A stretch of DNA of 64,000 bases from Thermoplasmatota archaeon (GCA_029939595.1 JAOZSQ010000001.1:347669-411668), one strand, 5' to 3'; numbered from the stretch's first letter, positions 14,624 through 64,000 are shown. Notes: a model not told the origin generated them from the letters alone. Translations and numbers: made by a program.

Positions 14624-14625
14624 CA

Positions 14626-15179: not shown

Positions 15180-15186
15180 GAGTGTT

Positions 15187-15627
15187 ATGATTCACAGAAA
15201 AAGAGTATTAAAGGAAGCCACTTTTGATTATGACGATTGGGAAAAGTCAAGTAGAACTGGTGGTATGGGATCTAATAGATCAGGTTATAATAGGAATTCA
15301 CCACCAGGAGATGACAAATTATCAAAGTTTTTAGATTTGTTTAAATATGGTGTTTCTAATCAGGATGCTCTTGCTAAATTGGGTGATAGAACATCAAAGA
15401 TGTTCAGAACCAAGAAACAAAAAGAAAGGGATGGTAGTCAAGAAACTGAAATGAAGTTGAAAGACTGTTTTCAGGCATCCCATAAGGATTGTATACAGTT
15501 TGCAGAACGCAATGGGAAAATAGAAGATTATCAAAAGTGCTACGATTTATCTACTGCTAATTGTATAGGCAGATTTGATAAGAAATTAAGTAAGCATTAT
15601 TTGAAAAAAGCGAAATCTTTAAGATAG
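15187..15627 (+). CDS. Internal-protein-like protein
   Basis: MIHRKRVLKE|AT leader; 146 aa; RBS ttaggagtgttATG. Confidence 0.4.
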   Translation: MIHRKRVLKEATFDYDDWEKSSRTGGMGSNRSGYNRNSPPGDDKLSKFLDLFKYGVSNQDALAKLGDRTSKMFRTKKQKERDGSQETEMKLKDCFQASHKDCIQFAERNGKIEDYQKCYDLSTANCIGRFDKKLSKHYLKKAKSLR

Positions 15628-47380: not shown

Positions 47381-47923
47381 TTGAATTTAATTATATTTAT
47401 CATTAGGAAGGTTATGCTATTTAAGGAATTTATGAGAAAGAACGAAACTCCAAGAGAGATTGTATTGTTATGCGGTCCTCAGTGTTCAGGTAAAAGTACA
47501 TGGCTCAAGAAAAATAAGAAAGCTTATTACAAGGTTTTGTCTAGGGATGGGATCATTATGAAAAAAGCTGCTAGAATGGGTGTTACCAACTACGAAAAGG
47601 CTTTTGACTCGGTTCCAGCAAAAGAAGTTGATTCGGAATTATACAACAGGTTGAAACAACTGACTGATGCTGGAAGAGGAGTGTATATAGATATGATGTC
47701 GTTGACTTCCAAATCACGAGCCAAGATACTTGATAAAGTGCCGGACGATTATAAAAAAGTAGCTGTGGTATTTGATACTCCGCTTCAAACGCTGTTGAAA
47801 CGGAATGAAGCCCGATCTAAAGAGGAAGATAAGTATCTCCCCCCAGGAGTCATAGTCAACTCATTTAAACGATTAGAGTACCCAAGCAAGACCGAAGGCT
47901 TTACAACCATCTCAAAAGCATAA
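47381..47923 (+). CDS. pnk: Polynucleotide 5'-kinase, kinase domain only (T4 Pnk N-terminal-domain-like)
   Basis: P-loop LLCGPQCSGKSTW against T4 Pnk TIGCPGSGKSTWA. TLLKRNEARSK against T4 ELVKRNSKRGT. No phosphatase domain. Confidence 0.6.
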   Translation: MNLIIFIIRKVMLFKEFMRKNETPREIVLLCGPQCSGKSTWLKKNKKAYYKVLSRDGIIMKKAARMGVTNYEKAFDSVPAKEVDSELYNRLKQLTDAGRGVYIDMMSLTSKSRAKILDKVPDDYKKVAVVFDTPLQTLLKRNEARSKEEDKYLPPGVIVNSFKRLEYPSKTEGFTTISKA

Positions 47924-49080: not shown

Positions 49081-52000
49081 ATGAAGATTTATAGTAATCA
49101 ATTTGAAGTAATAACAGAAGTTGACGATACCAAAGAAGGACTAGAAAATGTAAATTTTTCTGATATTACAAAAAGATTTATATCATTGGAAACACAAGTA
49201 TCAAATATGTTTATCAAATCCAATAATGATATCAGTTTTAAAGGTAATATGGTTCCTGATGCTGATGATACATGGAGCATCGGTTCGTCAACTAAAAAAT
49301 TAGCAGAATTACATATATCAGCAAATACCATTTATTTAGGAGATGGTACACAATTTAAAGGTCATTCAGTTACTATTACAGGTGAACCAAATCCAACGTC
49401 AATGACAGAACAACCCATTTTAACAGCCAGCAGATTGATTGCCAAACCTTGGAAATATAATCCTGGTAGTGGAGAAGTTAAAGTTCGTCCATCTATTGAA
49501 TTTGAAGGAACTGATGGTAATAGATATCCGATTTCTTTCAATACAGATGATAATTCTTTTTCTTTTGATGCAAAAGGAAATTATGGTGAGGGTTGGATTG
49601 TAGCTAGAAAACTTACTTTAGAAGATAGTGGTCAAACTGCTTTGTCTGTGAGAGGACATGCTGAATTTGAAGATAATGTGAAAATTAGGGAAACTCTTAA
49701 AGTATATGGCAATACCACTTTAGGTGATGATAGTAGTAATACAATCACTGTTAGAGGAATTTTGGATATAACAACTCCTATATTATTCAAAACAGGAGCC
49801 ACATTAGGAGACGGAAATGACACTATTGCAGTGAATGCGGGAACTCAAAATAATTTTACAGTATTAGCAAAGAATTTTGAATTAGATGGTGAGGGTATTG
49901 CCAAGGTATCAAATATTGAAATAGCTGGAAAATCCATATATGAAATAGCTGGAAAAGCTTCTGTTATTTCTGATACTGATGGAGATACTCAAATAACAAC
50001 TCAGAGTTGTTTTTCAGAAACTTGGCAACCTAATTATCCATACGAATTGAAAAATATAGTGAAACCTACAGTTTCCAATGGGCATTATTATAAACCTATA
50101 GCAATAACTGGTGATGGAAGGTCTGGTTCTACTGAACCTGTATGGCCGACAGAGGTGGGTTCAAAAGTTATTGATAACCAAGTAGAGTTTCAAGAATATG
50201 ACGAAGATATTACAAGATTTTTGGCGAGTGGAAAAGAAGTTGCCAGAATACATCCTAATGGTTCCTTTGATTTTGATACTATAATGGTGCATGGTTTATC
50301 TTATTGTAATTCTTCTGTGATATGTACTCCTGGTGCTAAAGGAGGTGGATTTTATCAGGTAGATAGAAAACATTTAGGTGCTGAGAAAACTGCTCCTGTA
50401 AGTACGGGAAATTTTGATGTAACAGGTGGTTTATATGATAAGTTATTTACTTCTACCACTAATATGTTCAGTTCAACAGATGTAGGTAATGTAATTTTCA
50501 TAATTGATGGATTTTTGAAAGGTGCTGCTGCTCAGATTATGCGAGTTATTGATGAAAAAAATGTTATTATTTATAATCCTTTATGGACTGAGGATATGTT
50601 AAATGTTGCATTTTCAGTGGTTCCTGCTCCATCTTTTGCTGTGCAAGATGGAGGGGCTGTTACTTCAGTATTAGGTAAGGATGGTAGATTTTTTATTCAA
50701 GATTTACAACAAGAATGGAGGAAAGCTTTTCATATCCATAATAGGGCTGCTAATGGAAATATAACGGCTGCATATATTGAAACTGAGGTTGAATCATTTG
50801 ATAGAGTTTCATCACTTAACGTAGATTATAGAATAGGACAAGGAACAAATCCAAGATTTTTAAGTGTCATAAAAACACATATTGACGATGCTGATAATAA
50901 TACTAATCAGGTAAATGTTATGGAAGTATCAGCTAATAAATCGCAATCAAATAAAACCGTTTTGCATATAGAACCAGGATTTGATAATGTTGTAAAAGTT
51001 AGGGGAGAAATAGCAGAGACTCCTGAAAAAGCATATCAACACGATTCTAATTATTATAAATTTGCCCCTTCTTTAGAAAGTCAATATAATGTTGCTGATT
51101 GGCAAAAAGTGTCAATGAAAGATAGCATTCTCAAATTGACAGGATTTAATTTTGCAGACATAAAAGGTTACTGGAAATTTAATAATAATTTAATAGATTC
51201 GTCAGGTAATAATCATAATGGTTCAGGTAGCCCTAGTTATGTTACGGGTAAATTGAATCAGGCTATAGATATGTCTGATACTATTAGTTTGGGAAATCAT
51301 TCAGATTTAGACCTTAGTAATACATCATTTACTATTACATTATGGTTCTATCCTAATAAAATGGCTAATAAGATGATGTTCCATAAGGCATTAACATCAA
51401 GTCCTTGGAATGGTTTCGTTGTAAGAGGTTCATATTGGGAAGGAGATATTGAATTTATTTGTTATTGGGATGGTGGTGATGAAACAATTTCAATATCAGA
51501 TGCACCTTCAAATAATAATTGGCATCAATTAGTTATAACTTATAATGGTTCTACTGTTAAAATGTATTTGGATAGTTCATTAAAAACTTCTGAAAATGTA
51601 ACACTAGGAAATTTTTCTAATACTAGAAATTTCACATTAGGTGGTGAGTTAGACGGTTGGAATGGAAATCAATTTGATGGTTATATGGATGAAATGTCTA
51701 TCTGGAAAAGAGAGTTAAGTCATTCTGAAATAATTTATCTTTATAATAATGGTTCTGGTTATGAAATTGAACCAAATCAAACAGAATCTCAAACTGTTAC
51801 TAACAAAACAGGAATTGATTTAGCTGATTGGACCGGCATTAACGAAGTAAAAACACTAACAACAAATCCTAGCGGAACATCTATAAAGTTTTTATTTAGT
51901 GTGGATGGAGGAACCGTTTGGAATAAATGGAGTGGTTCTGCTTGGAATAGTGCAGCGATTGGAGATATTGAGACACAAGGGAATACATCAACTGAAATAA

Positions 52001-52638
52001 CACAACTCACCTCTGCTAATTGGTTAAGTTTGACAACAGGGAAATCGTCTTTGCATTGGGCTACTAATTTAAAAACTACTGTGCCAATGGTAACTCCTAT
52101 ATTACAAGAAATTAGTTTTCATAGTATATTAAAAACGATGAATTTTTCAAATACTGTTTTATTTTCAAGTATACACAATTATATATTGATAGGAAGAAGT
52201 AAACCTTTTGGTATATTAGAACTTATGTTAACAACGAAAGCATCAAATTCTGTAGGCATTCAATTGGAATACTCAACAGGAAATAATACTTGGAAACCTC
52301 TGACATTTAGCGACCAAACAAGCGAGTTAAAAACATCTGGAAAACTATCTTTTTCACCTCCTTCTGATTGGGTTGCTATTACTGAAATTGATGGACAAAC
52401 AATACCTAGCCATTATTATATCAAAATGAATAGAACTTTAGATATTTCAATATATCCTGTAACTGAGGATATGAAGATATATGAAACTTCCACAAGAGGT
52501 GAGATGTTAATTCGTGGAGATGGAACCATTAAACCAGCACAATTGGAAAATAGCGAGGCAGTTAATAACTCAATTTATTACAATGGAACTAATCTGGTTT
52601 TTAAAGATCCCACAGGAGTCATTAAAACAATAGTATAG
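49081..52638 (+). CDS. Large tail/baseplate structural protein with a LamG (concanavalin-A-like lectin) domain
   Basis: 1185 aa. The Laminin_G_3-like block NNHNGSGSPSYVTGKLNQAIDM...FTITLWFYP...WHQLVITYNGSTVKMYLD...DEMSIW is recognisable. Confidence 0.5.
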   Translation: MKIYSNQFEVITEVDDTKEGLENVNFSDITKRFISLETQVSNMFIKSNNDISFKGNMVPDADDTWSIGSSTKKLAELHISANTIYLGDGTQFKGHSVTITGEPNPTSMTEQPILTASRLIAKPWKYNPGSGEVKVRPSIEFEGTDGNRYPISFNTDDNSFSFDAKGNYGEGWIVARKLTLEDSGQTALSVRGHAEFEDNVKIRETLKVYGNTTLGDDSSNTITVRGILDITTPILFKTGATLGDGNDTIAVNAGTQNNFTVLAKNFELDGEGIAKVSNIEIAGKSIYEIAGKASVISDTDGDTQITTQSCFSETWQPNYPYELKNIVKPTVSNGHYYKPIAITGDGRSGSTEPVWPTEVGSKVIDNQVEFQEYDEDITRFLASGKEVARIHPNGSFDFDTIMVHGLSYCNSSVICTPGAKGGGFYQVDRKHLGAEKTAPVSTGNFDVTGGLYDKLFTSTTNMFSSTDVGNVIFIIDGFLKGAAAQIMRVIDEKNVIIYNPLWTEDMLNVAFSVVPAPSFAVQDGGAVTSVLGKDGRFFIQDLQQEWRKAFHIHNRAANGNITAAYIETEVESFDRVSSLNVDYRIGQGTNPRFLSVIKTHIDDADNNTNQVNVMEVSANKSQSNKTVLHIEPGFDNVVKVRGEIAETPEKAYQHDSNYYKFAPSLESQYNVADWQKVSMKDSILKLTGFNFADIKGYWKFNNNLIDSSGNNHNGSGSPSYVTGKLNQAIDMSDTISLGNHSDLDLSNTSFTITLWFYPNKMANKMMFHKALTSSPWNGFVVRGSYWEGDIEFICYWDGGDETISISDAPSNNNWHQLVITYNGSTVKMYLDSSLKTSENVTLGNFSNTRNFTLGGELDGWNGNQFDGYMDEMSIWKRELSHSEIIYLYNNGSGYEIEPNQTESQTVTNKTGIDLADWTGINEVKTLTTNPSGTSIKFLFSVDGGTVWNKWSGSAWNSAAIGDIETQGNTSTEITQLTSANWLSLTTGKSSLHWATNLKTTVPMVTPILQEISFHSILKTMNFSNTVLFSSIHNYILIGRSKPFGILELMLTTKASNSVGIQLEYSTGNNTWKPLTFSDQTSELKTSGKLSFSPPSDWVAITEIDGQTIPSHYYIKMNRTLDISIYPVTEDMKIYETSTRGEMLIRGDGTIKPAQLENSEAVNNSIYYNGTNLVFKDPTGVIKTIV

Positions 52639-52645
52639 GAGAATT

Positions 52646-53179
52646 ATGTTAGAATTTAAAAAAGATGGAATTTCATCAGATAAACCATTTGAGAATTTGC
52701 CGGTTGGTACTATTCTTATGTTTGATGGTGAGAATTGGGAAGATAATATTACATTGCCAGGATGGTTTCTATGTAATGGAAATAATGGTACACCAAATTT
52801 GATTGATAAATTTGTAAGAGTGGGCAATACCAGTGGTAATGAAGGTGGAAAAAAGATTGTTACATTAGCAGAAGCGAATATGCCTAGTCATTATCACAAC
52901 GTAAGTAAAGTAACTATGAATACAGGCAATCAAAATGCTAATCACACTCATGGATATAATCTTTATCATGGTGTTCATTATACTTCTACTTCATGGAAAA
53001 CAGGTTGTACGGCTACTGGTGCGGGTTCGGCTGGTACAACAGTTACAGGTAATCAACAGGCGAATCATGGTCACTCTGTTACCTTTCCATCAAAAGATAC
53101 TAATTCCAAAGGTTCTGGAACGGGATTTGATATAACACCTGAATATTACAGTTTAATTTTTATTAAAAAAACACAGTGA
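52646..53179 (+). CDS. Tail-fibre collar-domain protein (T4 gp12 collar / MdpB-like), copy 1
   Basis: PVGTILMFDG..W....LPGWFLCNG matches the phage tail collar motif. His-rich HYH/NHTHG/NHGHS motifs. 80% identical to 53894..54424. Confidence 0.55.
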   Translation: MLEFKKDGISSDKPFENLPVGTILMFDGENWEDNITLPGWFLCNGNNGTPNLIDKFVRVGNTSGNEGGKKIVTLAEANMPSHYHNVSKVTMNTGNQNANHTHGYNLYHGVHYTSTSWKTGCTATGAGSAGTTVTGNQQANHGHSVTFPSKDTNSKGSGTGFDITPEYYSLIFIKKTQ

Positions 53180-53187
53180 GAATACTT

Positions 53188-53892
53188 ATGAAATATTTAC
53201 TTTTTTTATTTTTGTTAATACCCACATTTCTTTATGCCCAATTTCTGACAGTGGTTACAGAAAATTGGAAACCATATAATTATGAAGAAAATGGGGTAGC
53301 AAAAGGAATATCAACAGTTGTGGTTGAAAAGATTTTAAAACACGCAAAAATCAAATATAAACTTCGTGTGTTGCCTTGGGCAAGGGCATATATGATGGCA
53401 CAATCAAAAAAGGATTGTTTGATATATACTATTATACGCATATCTCCTAGAGAAACCCTGTTTAAATGGGTCCGCCCATTGGGTAAAGGTGGAGTTACAT
53501 CGTTATATAGACTTAAAAAGAATACTTCAATAAGTTTTAATACATTAGAAAAAGCTAAAATATATTCTATTGTGGCTAATATGTCTTCTATGGATCATCT
53601 ATGGCTTGAATTTAACAACTTTCCAAATATACATATGTCTGTTAAACCAAGGCATTCTATTAGGATGTTGTTTGCTAAAAGAGTGGATTTACTTCCATTC
53701 AATGATGCCGTTATAAAAGACGAATTTGAAAGTGCGGGATACGATTTAAATAAGGTGACTAAAATAATGCCTCTTTTTCGTACACCACCTTATTTTGCTT
53801 TATCTTTATTCACTTCTGATTATATTTTGCTCAAATTAAGAGATTCATATGATGAGTTGATCAAATCAAAACAAATTTCACTGGTAGATTAA
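53188..53892 (+). CDS. Secreted solute-binding protein (SBP_bac_3 / amino-acid ABC-type periplasmic binding fold) acquired from outside the phage (a moron)
   Basis: Signal peptide MKYLLFLFLLIPTFLYAQ; ENWKPYNY...LPWARAY...TIIRISPRE pattern. The ORF track starts at a GTG (53176); the ATG at 53188 is the likelier start. Confidence 0.45.
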   Translation: MKYLLFLFLLIPTFLYAQFLTVVTENWKPYNYEENGVAKGISTVVVEKILKHAKIKYKLRVLPWARAYMMAQSKKDCLIYTIIRISPRETLFKWVRPLGKGGVTSLYRLKKNTSISFNTLEKAKIYSIVANMSSMDHLWLEFNNFPNIHMSVKPRHSIRMLFAKRVDLLPFNDAVIKDEFESAGYDLNKVTKIMPLFRTPPYFALSLFTSDYILLKLRDSYDELIKSKQISLVD

Positions 53893-53893
53893 A

Positions 53894-54424
53894 ATGTTAG
53901 AATTTAAAAAAGATGGGATTATATCAAACAAACCGTTTGAGAATCTACCGATTGGCACTATCCTGATGTATGATGGTGAAAGTTGGGAAAATGATGTTAC
54001 ATTGCCAGGATGGTTTATGTGTGATGGTTCAAACCAAACACCGGATCTTAGAAAGAGATTCGTTACAATGGATGAAGAAGAAAAAACTGGTGGGAAAAAG
54101 ATTATTACATTGGCGGAAGCGAATATGCCTAGTCATTATCATAACGTAAGTAAAGTAACTATGAATACGGGTAATCAAAATGCAAATCACGCTCATGCAG
54201 TTAATCTTTATCATGGTGTTCATTATCTTTCTTCTTCATGGAAAACAGGTTGCACCCAGACTGTTGCGGGTTCGGCTGGTACAGCAGTTACAAGTAATCA
54301 ACAGACGAATCATGGTCACTCTGTTACCTTTCCATCAAAAAATACTAACTCAAAAGGTTCTGGAACGGGATTTGATATAACACCTGAATATTACAGTTTG
54401 ATTTTCATTAAAAAGATAATTTAG
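53894..54424 (+). CDS. Tail-fibre collar-domain protein, copy 2
   Basis: Paralog of 52646..53179 with long identical nucleotide stretches. Confidence 0.55.
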   Translation: MLEFKKDGIISNKPFENLPIGTILMYDGESWENDVTLPGWFMCDGSNQTPDLRKRFVTMDEEEKTGGKKIITLAEANMPSHYHNVSKVTMNTGNQNANHAHAVNLYHGVHYLSSSWKTGCTQTVAGSAGTAVTSNQQTNHGHSVTFPSKNTNSKGSGTGFDITPEYYSLIFIKKII

Positions 54425-54432
54425 AGGAAATT

Positions 54433-54884
54433 ATGGAAAAACATGATGTTATACGTACAACAGACAAATCAGGAGGTGGCGGAGGAGGCACAATCGGAGA
54501 GATTGTTGTTTGGCCACTTCCTACTATACCAATAAACTTTTTAAAATGGGATGGCTAAACCGAGCGGAGTATGGTTCCGATGATACCTGTCAATATTTAA
54601 AGGATAGTTCGGGGGTGGTTCATATTAAGGGAATGGTCAAACATCCATTTACAGCGGCGAATCCTATATTCACGTTGCCAGCGGGGTATTACAGACCTGG
54701 AAAGCAAGTTAATAAACCGATACAAACGAGTTCTGGTCATGGTTTGCTTTATATACAACAGAATGGGAATGTAGTAGTAGGCGTTGGGGGTTGTGCGTAT
54801 GTTGCTTTGGATGTCAATTTTTATGTGGGATTTAAAAAAAAAAGGATGATTTATGGAAGAAACATTAGTTACCTTATCAGTTAG
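54433..54884 (+). CDS. Third collar-domain-like protein that requires a -1 frameshift at TTTAAAA (54540-54546)
   Basis: An RBS-led ORF MEKHDVIRTTDKSGGGGGGTIGEIVVWPLPTIPINFLK stops at 54558. The -1 frame continues as MGWLNRAEYG... to 54884, completing the collar motif (G.I..WP...IP..FL.MGWL). The slippery heptamer T_TTA_AAA is read directly from the sequence. Confidence 0.45.
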
Positions 54885-55107
54885 AGATGCCATAGATTGT
54901 GGTATTTGGGAAAATGTTTGTAAACTCAAAAATTGGGAAATAGATCAGTATTCATTAGATCATGTCATAACGATGACTGAACGGGATTGCATGGAGTATG
55001 AATGGCTTTTGGTTATGGAAGTGGAAGAGGGCATGGAAGAAGAAGATGAACCAGAATATATATACTTGGAGGATGATGAAGATGATGACTTATTCCCAAA
55101 AGATTAG
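54853..55107 (+). CDS. Small acidic hypothetical protein
   Basis: 84 aa, Glu/Asp-rich tail. Confidence 0.25.
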   Translation: MEETLVTLSVRDAIDCGIWENVCKLKNWEIDQYSLDHVITMTERDCMEYEWLLVMEVEEGMEEEDEPEYIYLEDDEDDDLFPKD

Positions 55108-55219
55108 AGAAGAATTAAGAAAAGAATTAGAAAAATCAGATTCAAGAGCACTACTGATTTGGTTTATTTCTACTCTTATATTAATCTTTTTGTATTATAT
55201 CTTACAGTGAAAGAAAATG

Positions 55220-55227
55220 TATAAATA
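55220..55227 (+). promoter_or_regulatory. T4-type late promoter TATAAATA
   Basis: Exact motif 26 nt upstream of the 55254 start codon of the long fibre gene. Confidence 0.45.
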
Positions 55228-55253
55228 ATACAAACCATACTAACGGGATTATT

Positions 55254-58200
55254 ATGATAAACCAACACAAGATTATTAAATCAAATGATATATCAGATTT
55301 AGGAGAAATTGTTGCAACCACTGAAGAGGTGGCTGATTTAACTGGAAAGGTAACAACTCTTGAAAATGATGTTAATACTATTAAAACAGAGGGAGCCGGT
55401 GGTTCAGAATTAGCCGCTCTTGCAGAGAAAGTAACAAATTTGGAAACCGGTGGAGCAATCGCTGGCAAATCAATTTCATATAAATATATTATCGGATCAG
55501 CCGAGGAAAAGGCAACAGGGAAAGCGGATTGTTTAATTAACAACTTAAAACCAACACCAACTGCGGTTCCAAAAGCTCTTACTTTAAAACAGGTCCCCTA
55601 TATTGGTGACTATTCATCGGTTGCTTTTTTTAAAGGGACATATTTCATTACAACAGGAAGTTTAACCATTCCAGGAAAGGTTATTCTTACTAATTCAGTA
55701 TATGCAACAAATACCAAGGAATATGTCTTAGGAAACGGATACGTCACGCTTGATGAAATTAATGGAAAGTTATTTGCGAGTCTCCTGACTACTACGAGTT
55801 TTTCTTTATATCTTTATAAAGAAGATACTGACGAATTTGTAAAGGTCTTTGATAAAACAGGTTTTACAATAGGTCAAGAGCAAATGCAAATATTTTTGTT
55901 TTCTAAAATTGTCTATCATCTTGGAAAATATATTTACCTTTGGCCGATTATTACAGATAAAAATATAATTACTTCTGCTGATGGAGAAACGTGGACAGAA
56001 AATACGTTTATTTTGGATGCCGCTAATCCAGAACGATGGAGCATACTAGCTTATGATACATTGGGCGATTATCTTGTTTATTCTGGTGTATTTGGGGCAA
56101 TGGTAAGTAAAGATCTGGTTAATTGGCAGGTTATTGATGACGCTAGTTATTATCTCAGCGTTTGTGAATTTGAAGGAACTATTTACATTTTTGCAGGGTT
56201 TGCAGATTCATACAAATCAACCAATGGAGTAGATTGGGTTAAATTTAAAAGAGAAGATGTTACTCCTGGTTATCCACGAAAATATGGAAGTGCTTATATT
56301 GTGCCCCTTCTTGATTTTCAAAATGGCAAAATAGAATTTGCATTCGGAACTACACCATTTAATGCACAATTATGCAACATAACGCCAACCTTTGAAGAAT
56401 CATTGGGTGGAGACGCAAATAGTCATGTAATGATTTCTTCTGTTGTTAGACCACTAGATAATAAATTCTATTTTCCAACAATGGGTAAAGGTTTCTTCCT
56501 TTTATCAAATGAAAATTTGGTGAACGAGCTTGGTGTTGGTGATCTTGAATTTAAGGAAAAAGATACTGCGTTGATAAAAGATGGTACTCATGTTCTTTCT
56601 GGTTCCTTTATTATTCCAGATGGAACAGTTGTAAGATCACACTCACCATCGGCTGTTATAGATAACAGTATGTTTTCAATAGGAATTACAGGAGGGCATT
56701 CCGATGTTGATATTTATTGTACCAATATAGATAACATTGGGGCTGATTTTGAAAATCAAATTAGTTCAAGAATTTTTATTAATGGTGCAGAACGCTATTC
56801 TGTTGGTAGAACCCAAAAGGATTCATATAAAACAGAAAGAGAATTGCATGAATCCGAAGAGATGACTCCATTTGTTATAAAAACCAAAACCGAATATGAA
56901 AGATGGACTAACATTGGAAATCCATTAAGTCAAAATATTACCAGTTCTTTTATTAACAGAAGTCAGGATATGATGTATGTATTCAGTCATATATCAGGAG
57001 AATACGCATATTGTGGCAAAGATTGTAATTTTACAAAAGTTACATTTCCACATGCATTAACTGGAACTCGGAATATGGTTGGTTTAGAAATTGGTTCTAG
57101 TAAAAATATTAATGTGTTTTTTAATGTAGATAAAGATATATATAGGTCAGAGAATGGTGGTGCATGGGCAAAGGTTGGAACAACAACAAATTCTATCGCT
57201 AAGTTGGGTGCAATAGATTCGGTTACAGGTGGAAGATTTTTAGCATACTGTGAAATCAATGATAAACTTTTAGATGATAACGGGTTAGAATTTGATTTTC
57301 CTGTAGATGTAAACACAAAATCAGGTGAAAAGTATAATTTTGTTGGTGTTGGTGATTGGTGGTTTTTTTATTTTGATTGTAAACTTTGGAGATCTCACTA
57401 TGCAAACACATGGGAAGAAGTTCAAGTAACAGATGAAAATGGTAAAAATCCAATAATGTTTGATGTTTTTTTAAAAAACAATTTAAATTTCTATGATTGG
57501 GAAGATATTGATAATGTATTAGCGGTTCCCAATACATCTTATTTAATTGCTCAAACCAATTCTGGTAAAAACGTAGTGCTTCGGAATGAAGAAGGACATG
57601 TTGTTTTCATTCAATATTACCGAGGAAATTTAGTTGGTTTGAGCTATTGTGCAGAATTATATCAGATTTCACGAAATAGTATTTGGTATACTAACCCTAG
57701 TGTTATGTTTTCTGATGGAAGAATATTAAAATTGGATATTAATGTTGACGGAAGTTGGTTCACATCTTGGCCACTCTTAACAGGAATGCCAATAACTTTA
57801 ACTGGTGATGATTATAATGGCGGTTTATATCATTTGGCAAGAGGTATATTTATGCGAGTATGCTCATCTGGTATACATAAATATGATTGGTCTTCAGAAG
57901 TGGAATTTACCAATGAGGATCTTGAACGAAAAAGGTTAGTGAGTAATTTGGTGGATATGCCAGCTATTCCTGAGACAACATTATACTTCAAAGGAAGGGC
58001 TGATAATAATCCAACATATTTCTTTTGTTCAGAAAATGTTCATTATATTTTCAATATGGAATCATCCAATAATATATTCATTTATATTCATGGAAAAAAT
58101 AATAGATTAACTTTAAATAAGGAACATACCAATGATGTAGCTGAAAATCCATGTGAATATGTTATAAATGAAACCAGAGATGGCAACTATCAATCCAATA

Positions 58201-59303
58201 CTGTTTATACTCAAGGAAATAAATTACTACATTATAATCCATTGAATTGTTCTTACTCGTATTTGTTGGATGAGAATAACGTGAAAAAGAATGAATTGGC
58301 TCTAGGATTAGAAACAAGAGCACCAGTTGTTCATACTCATCCATATTTAACCCCTGAACCCTTCATTGATCGTCCAGAATTAAAAGAAGATTTATACAAA
58401 AATTGGGAAATAATAAACGAATCCATGACACATTATATATGGGAATTCGCAAATCTAGGTGCCGGTGTTATATTAGCTGGAACTGACAATGGGTGTCTCC
58501 GAAGTGTTGATTATGGTTTAACCTGGAGCTACATCCAAAATTCAAGTGAAACTACCGCATTAGCGAATTGTGGTAACGGAATCGTGTTGGGTTGTTTAGC
58601 AAATCAAATTAAGAGAAGTACAGACTATGGTGCTACATGGTCATCGCTTACACCGAATATATATAGTAATTTTCGTGCGATAGAATATTGTGGAAATGGC
58701 GTGTTGGTTGCGGGTAAATCGTCTAATAGTGCTAATTCATGTTTTATAAGAAGTACCGATTTTGGAAAGACGTGGGCACAGGTTTCAGGACCATCTGGAT
58801 CAACAGGTAGATCAATATGGGCTATTAATTATATAGGTAATAATATTATTGTTGCCGAATTGAATGATGCTATATGGAAAAGTGTAGATAAAGGAGTTAA
58901 TTGGGTGAACCAAGTTTCTACATATGGATTTGGAGTATTACATTCACTATATTTAGGTAACGGAATAATACTTCAAGGTGGTAGAATTGGTGATAGAGCA
59001 ACAATAAAAAAATCAATCAATAAGGGTGATGCATGGGATCAGGCTTTTATTGCCCCTGCGGGTAGTGGTTTTGTAATGGTTCGTGGAATGGTGTTTGATA
59101 GACAACATGGAATAGTTCTTTGTTCACCACAAACAGGTGGAGGTGATGAAGAATTAAGTTTGTTGAAAAGTGATGATTTGGGTCAAGCATGGAGTGATGT
59201 GTTTTTTGCTCCGGCTGGAACAAAATTTTCTGAATTAGTTTATTTAAGCGAAGGAAAAATACTATTAGGAAGTGATAAAGGACTTTATTCTAGTATAATA
59301 TAA
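55254..59303 (+). CDS. Long tail-fibre protein with an N-terminal coiled-coil and a C-terminal BNR/Asp-box beta-propeller
   Basis: 1349 aa. At least six S.D.G.(T/N/A)W repeats in the last ~300 aa (RSVDYGLTW, RSTDYGATW, RSTDFGKTW, KSVDKGVNW, KSINKGDAW, KSDDLGQAW). Confidence 0.55.
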   Translation: MINQHKIIKSNDISDLGEIVATTEEVADLTGKVTTLENDVNTIKTEGAGGSELAALAEKVTNLETGGAIAGKSISYKYIIGSAEEKATGKADCLINNLKPTPTAVPKALTLKQVPYIGDYSSVAFFKGTYFITTGSLTIPGKVILTNSVYATNTKEYVLGNGYVTLDEINGKLFASLLTTTSFSLYLYKEDTDEFVKVFDKTGFTIGQEQMQIFLFSKIVYHLGKYIYLWPIITDKNIITSADGETWTENTFILDAANPERWSILAYDTLGDYLVYSGVFGAMVSKDLVNWQVIDDASYYLSVCEFEGTIYIFAGFADSYKSTNGVDWVKFKREDVTPGYPRKYGSAYIVPLLDFQNGKIEFAFGTTPFNAQLCNITPTFEESLGGDANSHVMISSVVRPLDNKFYFPTMGKGFFLLSNENLVNELGVGDLEFKEKDTALIKDGTHVLSGSFIIPDGTVVRSHSPSAVIDNSMFSIGITGGHSDVDIYCTNIDNIGADFENQISSRIFINGAERYSVGRTQKDSYKTERELHESEEMTPFVIKTKTEYERWTNIGNPLSQNITSSFINRSQDMMYVFSHISGEYAYCGKDCNFTKVTFPHALTGTRNMVGLEIGSSKNINVFFNVDKDIYRSENGGAWAKVGTTTNSIAKLGAIDSVTGGRFLAYCEINDKLLDDNGLEFDFPVDVNTKSGEKYNFVGVGDWWFFYFDCKLWRSHYANTWEEVQVTDENGKNPIMFDVFLKNNLNFYDWEDIDNVLAVPNTSYLIAQTNSGKNVVLRNEEGHVVFIQYYRGNLVGLSYCAELYQISRNSIWYTNPSVMFSDGRILKLDINVDGSWFTSWPLLTGMPITLTGDDYNGGLYHLARGIFMRVCSSGIHKYDWSSEVEFTNEDLERKRLVSNLVDMPAIPETTLYFKGRADNNPTYFFCSENVHYIFNMESSNNIFIYIHGKNNRLTLNKEHTNDVAENPCEYVINETRDGNYQSNTVYTQGNKLLHYNPLNCSYSYLLDENNVKKNELALGLETRAPVVHTHPYLTPEPFIDRPELKEDLYKNWEIINESMTHYIWEFANLGAGVILAGTDNGCLRSVDYGLTWSYIQNSSETTALANCGNGIVLGCLANQIKRSTDYGATWSSLTPNIYSNFRAIEYCGNGVLVAGKSSNSANSCFIRSTDFGKTWAQVSGPSGSTGRSIWAINYIGNNIIVAELNDAIWKSVDKGVNWVNQVSTYGFGVLHSLYLGNGIILQGGRIGDRATIKKSINKGDAWDQAFIAPAGSGFVMVRGMVFDRQHGIVLCSPQTGGGDEELSLLKSDDLGQAWSDVFFAPAGTKFSELVYLSEGKILLGSDKGLYSSII

Positions 59304-59329
59304 ATGTCAATTTAATTTAAGAGGATATT

Positions 59330-60781
59330 ATGGCAGATAAATACAATGTTATCAAAGCATCTGACATGGGTGCAGGAGGGGGCGGTGGTTCTCCAATAAA
59401 AACCATTGCTTTAAATTCAAGCATGATAGAACAGGCTGAATTAACAATAAATGAATTAAAAGTATTAAGAATTAAAACCGGTGATGGCATCACATATGAT
59501 AAAGATGAATCTAGTGATACTCTTACATTGGGTCTTGGAAGTGGATTCAAAACCATTAATACCTCACACGGCGATACATTAGTAGCCATCGCAGAAGATG
59601 AGTATACTTTAGAAGGTGGAACCGGTATTAGAGTAACTGGATATCCAACAGGGTCCGATACACTTCCAGGCAAGAAATCAATCAGAATTGAAGCGATTTC
59701 TGGAACCACAGAAGAAACTAAATCCACAACTGATGTACCAGCAGGATTGATTCTTCTATCTCCAACTACCTTAACCAGTGCGGATGAAGGAACAAAAGTG
59801 TTTGGTTCAGCTAAATTTTCAACTGAAACCAGTTTTGCCAATGTGTTTGGTTCAGAAGGTATGTGGCAATTGAAAAAACCAACCAATCCCGATCTGAACG
59901 GATGGGTTGCATTGAAGATGGATAGCATTTCAACTATTCATAGATACGCTTTTACAGCCAGTATGGATGGAGCCAATGGCCGACCTTCTAGTTGGGTTAT
60001 GGAAGTTTCAATGGATTCGTCAAATGGATCTGATGGTATTTGGGAAATGATAGACCAAGTAACAGAAGATGTGACAATTGGCGCAGGAAGAAGTGTCAAT
60101 GTAGAAATCAAAAATATGAAGGCTTGCCTTTGGGTAAGATTTAGAATCACCGGTATTGATGATCCAGGTAGTATGGATGATGTGGCAATTCAGATGTTGT
60201 CTATTTGGGGTAAAGAAGAGGCTAAACAAGTTCAATTGATATCTCCAACCAACGCACAGTTATCTGATGGTGGTGTAAGTATTTTTGCTTCAGCACAAGA
60301 ATCTGAAAGTAATTCTTATATTAATCCTTTTAGCTCTCAAGGAAGTGGTCAATGGTTGATAGGAGAGAATATATCATCAGGTTGGGTTGCTCTAAAATTA
60401 AGTCAAGTAGTCAAGCTTCATAGATACGAAATTGCATCTGCTGCTACTCCATATGGTTCTCCGACAGCTTGGGTTGTTGAAGTTTCCAGTGATACAAACG
60501 ATGGAACTGATGGAACTTGGAAATTATTGGATAGTGTGTCTGATGCTGATATTCAAGGAAAATCATTAACAAGATATATTCCGAACACAAGTCTTGAATC
60601 AGGGACATGGTTGAGATTGAGAATAACATCAGGTAATTTGATTGCTGGTTATGTAACTGTTTCTAATCTTTCATATTATGGAATTGATGAGGGCGCACCA
60701 TTTACTGATAGTCCTGCTTCAGTTGAACAAGAAATTGCCAAACTAAAATTAGATATCCTTCAACTTAAAAGTAAACACTAA
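59330..60781 (+). CDS. Fibre-associated protein with two discoidin (F5/8 type C)-like carbohydrate-binding domains
   Basis: 483 aa. Poly-Gly N-terminus. Two repeats of the W(V)ALK....LHRY.......P..WV.EVS.D...G.DG.W pattern, each preceded by an LLSPT-type linker. Confidence 0.5.
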   Translation: MADKYNVIKASDMGAGGGGGSPIKTIALNSSMIEQAELTINELKVLRIKTGDGITYDKDESSDTLTLGLGSGFKTINTSHGDTLVAIAEDEYTLEGGTGIRVTGYPTGSDTLPGKKSIRIEAISGTTEETKSTTDVPAGLILLSPTTLTSADEGTKVFGSAKFSTETSFANVFGSEGMWQLKKPTNPDLNGWVALKMDSISTIHRYAFTASMDGANGRPSSWVMEVSMDSSNGSDGIWEMIDQVTEDVTIGAGRSVNVEIKNMKACLWVRFRITGIDDPGSMDDVAIQMLSIWGKEEAKQVQLISPTNAQLSDGGVSIFASAQESESNSYINPFSSQGSGQWLIGENISSGWVALKLSQVVKLHRYEIASAATPYGSPTAWVVEVSSDTNDGTDGTWKLLDSVSDADIQGKSLTRYIPNTSLESGTWLRLRITSGNLIAGYVTVSNLSYYGIDEGAPFTDSPASVEQEIAKLKLDILQLKSKH

Positions 60782-60790
60782 GGATAATTT

Positions 60791-61438
60791 ATGGATTTAA
60801 CACAAGAAAATATAAAGACCCAAGCCGGTTTGTTATTGGATAAAATATCTGCTAATATAGGTACGAATGAAAGCGAGAAGCTATATTATCAAACTCTCGC
60901 TCTTAAAGAATTGAATTTACTACAGAGTGGACAGGCGGGATTGCCAGGAGAAGGGTTGTTGAAACTTCTCAGTCCTGTACACGGAACAGCAAAATCAACC
61001 GATTCAACTATAAAAGGAAGTCAGTATACAACTCATCATCCTTCTTTGTTATGGAATGATAGCAATGAACACGGCTGGTATTGTAATGGGGTGGTTCCTA
61101 GATGGTGTGTATTGAAATTACAAAAGGTTTCAACACTTCACAGATATACTATCATCAACGGTCCTCACAATTCTGTAGGAAGACCTTCAGCATGGGAGAT
61201 ACAGGTATCACTGGATGAAAGTTATAGTGAATCAGGTATGAGTTGGCAATTATTAGATGAACAAACTGTTACTAATCCGGCTATACAAACTACTTATTCG
61301 TTTGATATCAAACCTGAAAAACTGAATCATACTTGTTGGTGGATAAAAATAATAATAAAAGCTTGGTATGATCCTAGTGGTGGAGGTAATGATGCTGCTT
61401 TGAGAAGTATTGAATATTGGGGTAAGGAGGTAGCATAA
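60791..61438 (+). CDS. Adhesin-array paralog 1 (conserved N-terminal module plus discoidin-like domain)
   Basis: MDLTQENIKTQAGLLLDKISANIGTNESEKLYYQTLALKEL ... LLSPVHG ... WCVLKLQKVSTLHRYTI. Confidence 0.5.
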   Translation: MDLTQENIKTQAGLLLDKISANIGTNESEKLYYQTLALKELNLLQSGQAGLPGEGLLKLLSPVHGTAKSTDSTIKGSQYTTHHPSLLWNDSNEHGWYCNGVVPRWCVLKLQKVSTLHRYTIINGPHNSVGRPSAWEIQVSLDESYSESGMSWQLLDEQTVTNPAIQTTYSFDIKPEKLNHTCWWIKIIIKAWYDPSGGGNDAALRSIEYWGKEVA

Positions 61439-62103
61439 TGGATTTAACAACAACAAATTTGAAAGCTGAATCGGGTAAACTGTTAGATAAAATAGATGCC
61501 AGTATTACAGCGAGTGAAAGTGAAAAATTATATTACCAAGTTTTGGCATTGAAAGAACTTGATATTATAAAGAGAAATCAAATGCAACTTCTAGCGGGAG
61601 GAAATTTAACATTACTCAGTCCCACTAACGCAACACCAGGAGATCCACGAATATTTCAAAACCAACAATATAATAATGATAATCAGTATCATGTAGCTAA
61701 TGCGTTTGGTTGGACAGGTGGAAGTCGTGTTCATCATAATAGTTCACATGGCGCAGACCCTTCTAATGCGAAATTGGGGGTACATTGGGGATATGGTAAA
61801 GGTGATAATGATTATTGTATGTTGAAAAAATATATTATTGGAACTTGGATAAGTGATCCACCTGGAAGTTGGTTTATTGATGTTTCTATGGATTCCACAA
61901 CAGGATTGGATGGAACTTGGATATTGGTTGATACTGCTAATGGCGTGAATCCAGGTAATTCGCAGATGGTTGAACGAGTTATAACTGAACCAGTTGCTTG
62001 TAAATGGATACGATTTAATTGTACTGGTACATCCACAGGAGGTTCAAGTTTGAGTATAGGTACATTTGCATTTCATGGTACTGAACATTTAGAGATAACA
62101 TAG
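61438..62103 (+). CDS. Adhesin-array paralog 2
   Basis: MDLTTTNLKAESGKLLDKIDASITASESEKLYYQVLALKEL ... LLSPTNA; ATGA overlap with paralog 1. Confidence 0.5.
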   Translation: MDLTTTNLKAESGKLLDKIDASITASESEKLYYQVLALKELDIIKRNQMQLLAGGNLTLLSPTNATPGDPRIFQNQQYNNDNQYHVANAFGWTGGSRVHHNSSHGADPSNAKLGVHWGYGKGDNDYCMLKKYIIGTWISDPPGSWFIDVSMDSTTGLDGTWILVDTANGVNPGNSQMVERVITEPVACKWIRFNCTGTSTGGSSLSIGTFAFHGTEHLEIT

Positions 62104-62110
62104 GAGTAAG

Positions 62111-62728
62111 ATGGATTTAACAACTGAAATCACACAAATTCGGACCGCTTTGACAAATTGTACGAAAGCAGAAGAATATTATTATTGGATGTTAGCTTTA
62201 AACGAAGCTAGAAAAGCTCATACAGAAGCAGTAGAGGGTGAACCTTATGAATTACTTTCACCAGTTAATGCTACTAATGCTACTACAGGTATAATAGGGT
62301 CTTCTACTAAAGATAATTGGAATAGTGATGGTGCTTGGATATTATTTTCTTCCAATGCTAATACTAGAGCAGTTATGAATAATGGTGGTTGGTGGGCACT
62401 AGATTTCCAAACTACAATGGGTTATAAAGCAATGATATATCGTTATACGATAACAACGAACTACAGTTATAGAGAACCTGATGATTGGGTTTTAGAAGTA
62501 TCAGACGATTTTGTGAATACCGAAACAGGAGAAGGTAATTGGTATGCTGTTGACCAAAGAGTAAATTCTCATATAGGTGCAGATTATAGTTCAAGATCGT
62601 TTGATGTTGTCACACCCAAAGCAGGAAGATGGGTTAGAATGAGAATACCAGGAGCAATCGTAAGGGAGTCAAGTAATGAAGCATGGACAGGTTTAAAAAG
62701 ATTAGCGTTTTATGGTAAGAGGATATAA
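62111..62728 (+). CDS. Adhesin-array paralog 3 (more divergent)
   Basis: MDLTTEITQIRTAL...EEYYYWMLALNEA ... LLSPVNA ... WWALDFQ...IYRYTI. Confidence 0.45.
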   Translation: MDLTTEITQIRTALTNCTKAEEYYYWMLALNEARKAHTEAVEGEPYELLSPVNATNATTGIIGSSTKDNWNSDGAWILFSSNANTRAVMNNGGWWALDFQTTMGYKAMIYRYTITTNYSYREPDDWVLEVSDDFVNTETGEGNWYAVDQRVNSHIGADYSSRSFDVVTPKAGRWVRMRIPGAIVRESSNEAWTGLKRLAFYGKRI

Positions 62729-62729
62729 A

Positions 62730-62879
62730 ATGGATTGGGAATTTAAAATAGAAGAAATAAAAAATCAAAAGGATTCTTGGTTTATGATTACAGCAAAAAA
62801 ACCAGGAATCGTTTTAATCAGATTCGTTAAAACGAAAGAAGAAATAGAAGAAGTTAAAAAGTCAATTGAATCGGAGTAA
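62730..62879 (+). CDS. Small hypothetical protein (shorter than the ORF-track cutoff)
   Basis: Translation MDWEFKIEEIKNQKDSWFMITAKKPGIVLIRFVKTKEEIEEVKKSIESE; RBS aagaggatataaaATG. Confidence 0.25.
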   Translation: MDWEFKIEEIKNQKDSWFMITAKKPGIVLIRFVKTKEEIEEVKKSIESE

Positions 62880-62882
62880 ATT

Positions 62883-63098
62883 ATGTATCAAACAAAAATA
62901 GAAGAGACGGTTGATCATGCCATCAATTTGATTATTCATAAAATAGAAGAAGATTATGGTATTGAGATAGAAGACACAGATAAGGAATTGTATTGCAGTG
63001 TTGGAAAGGGTGCAATAGAAAATTGGTATAGAGAACAAACTCAAGACGAGAGAGATGGCGACAGAAGCAAATTTAAAGAGAAATGGGATATAGATTAG
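62883..63098 (+). CDS. Small acidic hypothetical protein
   Basis: 71 aa. Confidence 0.25.
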   Translation: MYQTKIEETVDHAINLIIHKIEEDYGIEIEDTDKELYCSVGKGAIENWYREQTQDERDGDRSKFKEKWDID

Positions 63099-63105
63099 GA
63101 GCAAT

Positions 63106-63762
63106 ATGGATTTAACAATAGATAATTTAAAAGCACAATCAGGACTTTTACTTGATAAAATAAATGCTAATATAGGAACAAATGAGTCTGAAAAATTATA
63201 TTACCAGACTCTCGCTTTAGAAAAACTTCAACAAATACAAAGAAAAACACCAGCAATTCCTGGTGATGGAATTCTTAAATTATTGTCACCTACAGATGCA
63301 CAACCAAACGATATAAGAATATTTGGTAATCGTTTTGCTGATAATAATAATACTTATAAATATACGAATTGTTTTGGCTCTTATGGTGATGGAAGATGGT
63401 ATTTGAGAGTTTATACTGCTTGGGTTGCCCTTAGATTAGATAAACTCGCCACTCTTCATAAGTATTCTTTGGGAACACACGCAGTTAGTGAAGAAGGAAG
63501 ACCTAATGGGTGGTCCATTTTAATCTCACCTGATGGAGAGAATTGTTCAACGGATGGAGAAGATGGTGAATGGTTTACAATTGATACCGCACAATATCCT
63601 ACTGTTGATGCTGGTGTTACTATAGAAAGGGACATAGCACCAGAAAAATTAAATCATGTTACTCAATGGATAAAATTTAATATAACTTCTACATACGACC
63701 CAAGTTCATCTAACAGGAATTGTTCGGTATCATCATTGCAATATTTTGGAGTTGAAGTATGA
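63106..63762 (+). CDS. Adhesin-array paralog 4
   Basis: MDLTIDNLKAQSGLLLDKINANIGTNESEKLYYQTLALEKL ... LLSPTDA ... WVALRLDKLATLHKYSL. Confidence 0.5.
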   Translation: MDLTIDNLKAQSGLLLDKINANIGTNESEKLYYQTLALEKLQQIQRKTPAIPGDGILKLLSPTDAQPNDIRIFGNRFADNNNTYKYTNCFGSYGDGRWYLRVYTAWVALRLDKLATLHKYSLGTHAVSEEGRPNGWSILISPDGENCSTDGEDGEWFTIDTAQYPTVDAGVTIERDIAPEKLNHVTQWIKFNITSTYDPSSSNRNCSVSSLQYFGVEV

Positions 63763-63798
63763 ATGTACAATATTTAAGAACAGCAATTAAGGTATAAT

Positions 63799-64000
63799 AT
63801 GGATTTAAAAACACAAATAGAAAAGGTAATGGCAGAAATAGATGGTAATGTTTCTTTAGCGAATGGAGAAAAGTTATATTATCTGTCATTGACATTGAAT
63901 GAGTTAAGAAAAGCTCATTTACCTACATTGCCATCAGATGATAATTTACAATTACTAACACCTTCCAATGCTACTTCTGCAACTAATGGAATATGGCAAG
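63799..64000 (+). CDS. Adhesin-array paralog 5 (3' end beyond the window)
   Basis: MDLKTQIEKVMAEIDGNVSLANGEKLYYLSLTLNEL...LLTPSNA. Confidence 0.4.
   Translation, partial: MDLKTQIEKVMAEIDGNVSLANGEKLYYLSLTLNELRKAHLPTLPSDDNLQLLTPSNATSATNGIWQ

Follow-up and report, generated by a model that had tools for sequence, protein, structure and literature searches.

The end of the 64,000-nt stretch of DNA analysed here (the window) harbours an array of small paralogous genes which, judged by their sequences, belong to a lineage-specific multigene family of at least 15 small members and a single protein with two domains. The small proteins of about 200-220 aa combine an N-terminal module of about 50 aa, a short linker ending in LLSP and a discoidin/F5-8-type-C/CBM32 β-sandwich of about 150 aa. 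They are probably virion adhesins. A lineage-specific lectin family anchored on the virion via the N-terminal module is the best explanation, and for this combination as a whole we see about an even chance.

Gene array and phage context

The source DNA is a very divergent 427-kb T4-like myovirus, a jumbo phage, as identified by the genes for portal, prohead protease, scaffold, gp23-type capsid protein and DNA end protector present in the window. The MCP shares only about 30% identity with any GenBank phage. In the GenBank phage collection, a megablast search with 55254-64000 gave no DNA match and a tblastn search with the product of gene 63106 (genes are named by their first nucleotide) gave no match either. 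No relative was found in IMG/VR with a single protein, a sub-family alignment or the 1349-aa neighbour as query, nor in the JGI metagenomes, and a 50-mer taken from the end of the window had no exact match in IMG/VR or in GTDB genomes. These sequence searches mark both the family and its phage as orphans in the 15 billion-protein collections and the phage and metagenome DNA collections searched, and the system is therefore unexplored.

The head gene block is located at 4.5-10 kb and the adhesin-like array about 50 kb away, where it completes, on the 3' side, a block of fibre- and lectin-like genes sharing one orientation (upstream part 49081-59303, + strand). This upstream block comprises a 1185-aa protein with a Laminin_G_3 lectin domain (49081-52638), which also showed a weak 'head decoration' Ig-like match in PHROGs, two tail-collar-fibre-like paralogs (52646-53179 and 53894-54424), a 124-aa minor-tail-like ORF (54510-54884) and a 1349-aa protein with C-terminal BNR/Asp-box repeats (55254-59303), all on the + strand. 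The array itself, also on the + strand, starts with the ORF of a 483-aa two-domain protein (59330-60781), followed by the small paralogs 60791 (60791-61438, 215 aa), 61438 (61438-62103, 221 aa; its start overlaps the preceding stop by 1 nt), 62111 (62111-62728, 205 aa) and 63106 (63106-63762, 218 aa). The preliminary description had listed six consecutive tandem paralogs. Domain homology bears this out for the four small genes and the 483-aa protein, but the genes are not consecutive: two unrelated ORFs which do not belong to the family lie between 62111 and 63106, one of 55 aa (62712-62879; possibly 49 aa from an ATG at 62730, the 55-aa form being the one on record) and a small acidic one of 71 aa (62883-63098). 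The sixth gene, 63799 (63799-64000), ends early. Inside the window it encodes the N-terminal module, LLTP and 12 more aa, thus only 16 aa of the domain, before the window end cuts off the rest. Its product on the full contig (P0098) has 100 aa with a stop about 35 aa into the domain, so the claim that it ends in a discoidin domain is not supported; it is truncated or frameshifted within the domain. The count of at least six genes was a large underestimate, as at least 15 small paralogs are present on the one 426,929-bp contig.

The array genes are tightly packed (gaps of -1 to 36 nt), and an AGGAG-like ribosome-binding site precedes each of them. No + strand terminator was found inside the array; sigma-70-like promoters and intrinsic terminators occurred at chance level, and the T4 late-promoter motif TATAAATA was not enriched (14 found, 10.4 expected). 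A decayed paralog between 62728 and 63106 was considered and rejected, since the six-frame HMM scan revealed no trace of it.

Architecture of the paralogs

All four complete small genes encode homologous C-terminal regions of about 150 aa, to which two segments within the 483-aa protein are also homologous. In BLASTP, 62111 as the most divergent member matched 63106 and each of the two 483-aa domains at E = 2e-9, and with phmmer 63106 matched 60791 at E = 2e-41 in a 5.8-billion-sequence database. The profile of five small paralogs, built without the 483-aa protein, matched the latter at 3e-51. In a six-frame HMM scan, the only matches to the N-terminal module in the 64 kb were those in the five small genes; the C-terminal domain matched in the four of them that are complete, twice in the 483-aa protein and nowhere else. 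As the preliminary description had noted, the LLSP motif precedes every domain.

Sequence comparison and structure models classify the C-terminal domains as discoidin/CBM32-type β-sandwich lectin modules. The predictions returned the discoidin fold that had been proposed, a distorted jelly-roll β-sandwich, and not a C-terminal domain of another kind. In the comparison with PF00754 (cut-off 28.2 bits), the 483-aa protein scored 29.8 bits and the small paralogs 23.5 (60791), 14.9, none and none; most small copies thus fall below the Pfam gathering cut-off, and the 62111 product alone had no Pfam match. The family profile retrieved 541 proteins at E <= 1e-3, and all seven distant matches examined (P0014, P0016, P0018-P0022) contained PF00754 at 1e-30 to 1e-85. 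A PDB profile search matched the CBM32 region of 7NSN at 8.7e-15, and a viral fold search returned discoidin proteins only. By sequence, the nearest matches are CBM32/F5-8-C modules found outside the cell, in secreted glycosidases and surface proteins. A terminal disulfide is a feature of eukaryotic FA58C domains and, to our knowledge, is missing from bacterial CBM32 modules. The alignment of 16 sequences contained no invariant or near-invariant cysteine and hence no terminal FA58C disulfide, and in this respect the domains resemble the bacterial type.

The two domains described for the 483-aa protein were recovered at aa 142-296 (nt 59753-60217) and aa 303-454 (nt 60236-60691), each with L(L/I)SP in front and with C-domain HMM matches of 1e-35 and 6.8e-25. 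Its AF2 model contains two sandwiches with pLDDT values of 70-88. The N-terminal 140-190 aa are β-rich, repeat-like and fibre-like, and their model is of low confidence (residues 1-189 below 50); the N-terminal module is absent from this protein. An amphipathic helix is predicted at its C-terminus (aa 462-482, nt 60713-60775). The protein matched the 'tail protein' phrog_17517 at 4.4e-10, and the weak PHROG matches of the family point to the same group. A shared N-terminal motif in the 1349-aa and the 483-aa proteins was rejected (E 0.15).

The N-terminal module, with the core motif E-(K/E)-(L/Y)-Y-Y-x-x-L-(A/T)-L, is acidic (pI 4.3-5.1 for most) and predicted to form two amphipathic helices. 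In the model of 63106, the helices span residues 3-21 and 27-47, followed by a disordered linker (45-54) and the β-sandwich (about 59 to 218); the pLDDT of the helical hairpin was only 56-71 in AF2. The module exists in several variant forms. A long form, 'MDLT..LLLDKI.ANIGTNESEKLYYQTLAL', occupies aa 1-58 of 60791 ahead of LLSP and the discoidin domain and recurs in 61438, while a short form of 47 aa, 'TNCTKAEEYYYWMLALNE', is common to 62111, P0011 and P0015. These variants speak against a single common docking site; several lock-and-key classes fit better. No homologue of the module was detected in Pfam, PHROGs or the PDB, where the best profile hit had a meaningless E of 0.16, and it was found neither on other proteins of the window nor among database proteins of similar length. 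A profile search of the 5.8-billion-protein set returned only P0098 and missed known family members too, so that it says little on fusions to other domains. A singleton relative on an unrelated contig of 45% GC (P0009/L001) has kept the two-module architecture, which argues for the N-terminal module as a conserved functional unit. By sequence reading, the paralogs have neither a signal peptide nor a transmembrane segment.

Divergence of the two modules

The N-termini had been called near-identical, which overstates their similarity. Over the 58 aa before LLSP, 60791, 61438 and 63106 share 55-67% identity, whereas the modules of 62111 and 63799 share only 33-39% with those three and with each other, close to the level of the C-terminal domains (32-38%). 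The accompanying statement that the C-terminal domains are the more divergent part was confirmed: among 15 family members the mean pairwise identity was 38% for the N-terminal module and 25.5% for the C-terminal domain, with the former exceeding the latter in 87 of the 105 pairs. The nearest relative of 61438, P0005, is encoded elsewhere on the same contig (C-domain identity 58%).

Of the dN/dS comparison envisaged in the preliminary description, only the difference in dN between the modules proved usable; the ratios are uninterpretable because NG86 dS was saturated at 1.0-2.4 in every pair. Among the three closest genes, dN was 0.30-0.40 in the N-terminal module and 0.77-0.98 in the C-terminal domain, with dS above 1 in both; at non-synonymous sites the N-terminal module has changed 2-3 times more slowly than the lectin domain. 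Slow non-synonymous change together with saturated synonymous sites indicates that the module is under stronger purifying selection than the C-terminal domain. Gene conversion as the source of the N-terminal similarity was rejected. The nucleotide identity was 62-64%, and the codons differ at about half of the conserved residues (the same codon in 16/36 to 19/42 of conserved degenerate residues); the longest exact match shared among N-modules was 18 nt, and only the first 12 nt or so (ATGGATTTAACA) are common. The same codon and nucleotide divergence led to the rejection of a template/variable-repeat arrangement of a diversity-generating retroelement.

The sequence pattern of the C-terminal domains looks like old divergence of the whole domain and not like loop-focused hypervariability. 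Indels are confined to loops, but strands and loops have diverged about equally (identity 0.28 vs 0.25), and with dS saturated diversifying selection on these domains is not demonstrated. The pairwise identities of the two modules were uncorrelated (Spearman 0.07; 509 of 2000 permutations in a Mantel test); as C-domain identities are near the noise floor, this provides only weak evidence for module shuffling.

Proposed role and relation to known systems

Docking of interchangeable adhesins through the N-terminal module, by analogy with gp38 of T2/T6, is a reasonable reading of these data. The paralogs would be made late and carried on the virion surface, with the N-terminal module anchoring them to a repeated virion partner. 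This partner would most likely be one of the neighbouring fibre proteins, and one candidate is the amphipathic helix at the C-terminus of the 483-aa protein, whose gene lies immediately upstream. The divergent lectin domains may bind different surface glycans, and such differences in specificity could result in multivalent or broadened adsorption. Because the N-terminal module occurs in several variant forms, a few lock-and-key classes would be expected rather than one universal socket. A bolder version, which we consider doubtful, is a plug-in system in which at least 15 lectin cartridges with a new helical docking module, falling into a few lock-and-key classes, compete for limited fibre sockets, the C-terminal helix of the 483-aa protein being one candidate socket. 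Glycan specificity would then vary between individual virions released in the same burst, a population-level bet-hedging of host range independent of recombination or a diversity-generating retroelement.

The lectins could instead decorate the capsid or the tail sheath in the manner of T4 Hoc, with the N-terminal module bound to the lattice and the discoidin domains coating the particle for weak, reversible adherence to glycans of the host envelope, mucus or particles and not at fibre tips. The paralogs are small, non-enzymatic and of an exposed lectin fold, the very large capsid implied by 427 kb of DNA would offer many sites, the neighbouring 1185-aa protein carries the weak 'head decoration' match mentioned above, and lectin domains on both heads and tails have been described for jumbo phages (PMC7824862). 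We nevertheless regard decoration as unlikely: the head block is some 50 kb distant and the genes come directly after fibre-like ones, fifteen strongly diverged copies exceed what quasi-equivalence of a lattice would need, and the paralogs lack similarity to known decoration proteins.

Two further explanations dispense with attachment to the virion. The two predicted amphipathic helices might be a coiled-coil oligomerisation element which raises the avidity of soluble or self-associating lectins; conservation of the module could equally reflect self-association, and the searches of the window, the databases and the PDB found no partner for it. Such lectins might mask receptors against superinfection or adsorption to debris, or bind host polysaccharides, inside the cell or after lysis. 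The apparent lack of a signal peptide, the position among structural fibre genes and the 483-aa relative, with a fibre-like N-terminal region and no such module, make this quite unlikely. Since discoidin-like folds also act as protein-protein domains, as in APC10/DOC, IFT25 and the N-terminal domain of XRCC1, the paralogs could also be intracellular modules for host takeover or counter-defence, each targeting a different host protein. This is improbable given that the nearest matches are extracellular CBM32/F5-8-C modules, that the weak PHROG matches are to the 'tail protein' phrog_17517 and that the genomic context is structural.

If the N-terminal module of the putative adhesins is a docking tag, it would represent a compact new adaptor (about 50 aa) by which any chosen binding domain could be attached to the fibre of a myovirus, useful for host-range engineering, and the array a natural example of a jumbo phage spending extra genome on a lectin library. 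If the family is just one more expansion of lectin-bearing structural paralogs, it would be ordinary for jumbo phages.

T4 Hoc, the product of a single gene, strings together Ig-like domains and binds the capsid through a domain at its C-terminus. The paralogs resemble it as non-essential-looking surface modules with a possible weak glycan adherence; Pfam and PHROGs revealed no Ig-like or Hoc match in them. In known CBM32/F5-8 type C proteins, such as the Neobacillus novalis GH92 (PDB 7NSN) and Clostridium perfringens glycosidases, the domain is an enzyme appendage, whereas here it stands alone behind a helical module of about 50 aa in a phage, lacks the conserved disulfide pair and is a putative carbohydrate binder. 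The survey by Iyer et al. (2021, PMC7824862) reports discoidin and LamG lectin domains as adhesion domains of jumbo phage virions, which agrees with the discoidin and LamG3 domains in fibre-associated genes of this jumbo phage; it reports the presence of such domains and is not known to describe a small two-module protein expanded 15-fold.

Branched systems with several receptor-binding proteins (CBA120 TSP1-4, G7C, K1-5/SP6 and the Klebsiella phiK64-1/RaK2-like jumbo phages; see also the abstract of PMC13579863) likewise encode many such proteins per genome, each conserved in its N-terminal anchor and divergent in its distal domain, which confer multivalency or an expanded host range. These are large trimeric tailspikes or depolymerases with β-helix enzymes and gp10-like or adaptor domains. 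The paralogs, in contrast, have about 200 aa, are non-enzymatic and would be anchored by a novel helical hairpin; Pfam and PHROGs detected no enzyme or gp10-like domain in them, AF2 predicted a helical hairpin plus sandwich, and no scaffold protein to carry them was recognised.

In gp38 of T2/T6-type phages, specificity resides in a variable C-terminal domain, and the conserved N-terminal attachment domain exists in a few variant forms (PMC3157838). Like gp38 of T2, T6 and S16, the paralogs are small proteins of a T4-like phage encoded beside fibre genes (PMC3157838), with a better conserved N-terminal module in variant forms and a more variable C-terminal domain. They share no sequence similarity with gp38 and had no match to gp38 families in PHROGs or Pfam. 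While gp38 docks on the distal fibre tip in a lock-and-key fit with the C-terminus of gp37, a corresponding arrangement is suggested here by analogy. The gp38 gene directly follows that of the distal long tail fibre; the genes ahead of the array, on its own strand, are large and fibre- or lectin-like, and none of them is recognisably gp37. The specificity domain of gp38 is built of glycine-rich motifs and hypervariable segments, whereas a discoidin sandwich is predicted here, and gp38 phages possess a single copy compared to at least 15 in this phage.

Gene array and fold of the encoded domains

The small paralogs (named by their start positions 60791, 61438, 62111, 63106 and 63799) belong to a large, old and lineage-specific family in which a constrained acidic helical module is joined to a CBM32-type lectin domain, and they are encoded with fibre- and lectin-like genes. 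The conserved N-terminal piece of about 50 residues (N-module) precedes an LLSP motif, and a domain of about 150 residues (C-domain) follows it. The co-oriented ORFs were found where the preliminary description had placed them. ORFs of the array are spaced by -1 to 36 nt, an AGGAG-like ribosome-binding site accompanies each, and no intrinsic terminator was found on the + strand within the array. The genes are not consecutive as had been stated, since unrelated ORFs at 62712-62879 and 62883-63098 break the array. The discoidin-like end ascribed to 63799 is present only in part: the gene runs off the window, and the product on record for it (P0098) has only 100 aa and stops about 35 residues into the domain.

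The first small paralog is in frame with the preceding gene (59330-60781) for a 483-aa protein with two C-domains, and only TAA GGA TAA TTT lies between them (60779-60793). A read-through fusion of the two looks unlikely because two stops intervene. The initial 10-14 nt (ATGGATTTAAC...) are identical among the five paralogs while the remaining N-module DNA is just ~63% identical, which may reflect a constraint on translation initiation.

The last ~150 residues are homologous among the four complete small genes, and two stretches within the 483-aa protein are homologous to them as well. With phmmer, 63106 matched 60791 at 2e-41 (database of 5.8 billion sequences), and 62111 is the most divergent member, with 2e-9 against 63106 and against each domain of the 483-aa protein (pairwise BLASTP). 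A profile built without the 483-aa protein matched it at 3e-51. When the whole window was scanned in six frames with HMMs, the C-domain was confined to these five genes and the N-module to the five small ones. The Pfam family F5_F8_type_C was matched by the 483-aa protein with 29.8 bits (gathering score 28.2); most small copies taken singly failed the cut-off, being below threshold or without a match. When 1.84 billion representatives were searched exhaustively with a five-member profile (HMMER), 541 matches were obtained; the distant ones examined were large secreted or surface proteins in which PF00754 occurs several times, namely RTX metalloproteases, one GH92, dockerin-bearing and Ig-rich proteins. 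In PHROGs, a collection of phage protein profile families, the discoidin domains weakly matched phrog_17517, annotated as 'tail protein'.

The AlphaFold2 model of the 63106 protein, based on seven aligned domains, had a mean pLDDT of 72.6 and a pTM of 0.65. It comprises helices at residues 3-21 and 27-47 (pLDDT 56-71), followed by a linker modelled as disordered and then by a beta-sandwich with core pLDDT of 80-90. Its Foldseek neighbours in the PDB were neuropilin b1, the factor V/VIII C2 domains, the DDR2 discoidin domain and CBM32 modules (E ~1e-7 to 1e-5). By sequence, the family profile matched 7NSN at 8.7e-15, an enzyme whose non-catalytic modules are CBM32s (PMC10167667). Both domains of the 483-aa protein were likewise modelled as sandwiches (pLDDT 70-88), the initial ~190 residues as beta-rich with low confidence and the final 21 residues as a helix. 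AlphaFold2, Foldseek and the profile matches thus predict a fold as beta-sandwich lectin modules, on which the adhesin reading of the preliminary description depended. Profile homology and predicted fold support the assignment of the C-domains to the F5/8-type-C/CBM32 superfamily, with ligand binding being putative.

Divergence and extent of the family

The N-termini had been called near-identical, which overstates their likeness: 60791, 61438 and 63106 share 55-67% identity over the 58 residues before LLSP, and 62111 and 63799 share 33-39% with this trio and with each other. The claim that the N-module is better conserved than the C-domain was confirmed. Across 15 members, mean pairwise identity was 38% for the N-module versus 25.5% for the C-domain, with the former higher in 87 of 105 pairs, and the ten columns of the core E-(K/E)-(L/Y)-Y-Y-x-x-L-(A/T)-L averaged 65%. 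In the trio, dN was 0.30-0.40 in the N-module versus 0.77-0.98 in the C-domain; NG86 dS (1.0-2.4) was saturated, which leaves the dN figures of the proposed dN/dS comparison. Recent gene conversion as the source of the N-terminal likeness was rejected, as the three closest N-modules are just 62-64% identical in DNA and use different codons at about half of the conserved residues. The longest exact nucleotide match between any two genes was 18 nt. Low DNA identity, differing codons, saturated dS and the lower N-module dN show instead that the N-terminal conservation stems from purifying selection on old duplicates. Strands and loops of the C-domain have diverged almost equally (identity 0.28 vs 0.25), with indels in loops only.

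The N-modules sort into a few recognisable forms, a long one ('LLLDKI.ANIGTNESEKLYYQTLAL'), a short one ('TKAEEYYYW.LAL') and a third ('IDLLQ.KIK.NIE.NEAEKLYYQTLAL'), and several singletons. N- and C-module similarities were uncorrelated (Spearman 0.07), which may indicate shuffling or mere noise at such low C-domain identity.

The preliminary count of at least six paralogs holds but falls far short of the family. Full-length small representatives from the exhaustive search numbered 13. The 426,929-bp source contig carries 12-13 representatives (P0001-P0005, P0007, P0008, P0010-P0013, P0015 and P0017) as well as P0151, which is the product of 61438, and the truncated P0098. The resulting number, at least 15 small paralogs and the two-domain protein on one contig, is a lower bound, since clustering at 50% identity could hide more. 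The sole member found elsewhere, the singleton P0009 (215 aa, 27% identical), is encoded at 734-1381 of a 1.7-kb ENA contig with 45% G+C (L001, ERZ27296442, k141_1755971), next to unrelated ORFs with no PHROG or Pfam match. Both modules are retained in it, which makes the two-module architecture older than the expansion in this phage.

Genomic context and source phage

The array ends a + strand block that starts at 49081 with an 1185-aa protein (49081-52638), which bears a concanavalin-like lectin domain (Laminin_G_3) and has a weak Ig-like PHROG match ('head decoration'). Two almost identical proteins of 176-177 aa (52646-53179 and 53894-54424) match tail-fibre and tail-collar PHROGs, and a 124-aa ORF is minor-tail-like. 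The 1349-aa protein (55254-59303) has a coiled-coil-like N-terminus and sub-threshold C-terminal BNR/Asp-box (sialidase-propeller-like) repeats; the 483-aa two-lectin protein is the last of the block before the array. No relatives of the 1185-aa and 1349-aa fibre-like proteins were found in the protein collection. Between the two tail-collar-fibre-like paralogs lies a 238-aa ORF (53176-53892, +) with a signal-peptide-like N-terminus and a match to bacterial solute-binding protein family 3 (PF00497; 28.6 bits, cut-off 26.4). The protein collection has no exact copy of its GTG-start product, hence translation may begin at another position. T4-type late promoter motifs were not enriched in the window, so that expression timing is inferred from position alone.

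Judged by its sequence, the window (~33-35% G+C) derives from a very divergent T4-like myovirus. PHROG profiles identified a gp20-type portal (4490-6235, E 5e-126), a prohead protease (6917-7588), a scaffold (7714-8472), a gp23-type major capsid protein (8532-10151), a head-closure protein and a DNA end protector. No GenBank phage has a major capsid protein more than ~30% identical to this one, and the top matches are Campylobacter phages. Among 15 billion proteins, those of this region are on record from the 426,929-bp contig (NCBI and Logan) only, and no relative was found by megablast and tblastn against the phage collection or in scans of IMG/VR, JGI metagenomes and GTDB genomes. The phage and its small-paralog family are orphans.

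A second, unrelated tandem paralog array (10683-15627, +) directly follows the major capsid gene. Its twelve Lys- and Cys-rich ORFs of 47-158 aa each have an AGGAG ribosome-binding site, and almost all begin with MI(S/N/H/V)R, followed in several by '(Q/K)..(I/L/M)(T/I)E(K/R)H', then a stretch rich in Gly and Ala, and a Cys/Lys motif at the C-terminus. With its (I/L)xE motif, the short conserved N-terminus resembles the sequence that targets T4 internal proteins to the capsid and is cleaved by the prohead protease. The array probably encodes internal head proteins. Strand and GC skew switch in a ~30-kb minus-strand block (18500-48700) that separates head and fibre modules and presumably holds replication and metabolism genes; for a + strand ORF inside it (47381-47923), the match is to a polynucleotide-kinase/RNA-ligase-like family. 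A tRNA gene was found nowhere in the 64 kb.

Proposed role and comparison with known adhesins

The small paralogs may be virion-surface adhesins which the N-module would anchor to a repeated structural partner; through their diverged lectin domains, glycans would be recognised more broadly or more strongly. We judge virion-anchored adhesins to be about as likely as not. A candidate socket would be the amphipathic helix at the C-terminus of the 483-aa protein, whose gene lies directly upstream. That the paralogs serve as interchangeable tips on one shared fibre socket seems rather doubtful. The closest functional analogy among T4-like phages is gp38 of T2/T6, whose N-terminal attachment domain occurs as a small set of conserved variants that are matched with the gp37 tip, specificity being set by the C-terminal domain (PMC3157838). 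Together with the several N-module forms, this analogy suggests that there is not one common site but several lock-and-key classes.

When tested for the defining sequence and fold features of the gp38 family, and for the defining features of branched tailspike systems and Hoc-like decoration proteins, the small paralogs did not display them and are not members of these groups. Phages that carry multiple adhesins are well known, and lectin domains of the discoidin and LamG types have already been described on the virions of jumbo phages (PMC7824862). What is new compared with these systems is the format, a cartridge of ~200 aa whose helical N-module had not been described before and which has undergone an at least 15-fold expansion in a single orphan T4-like phage of 427 kb.
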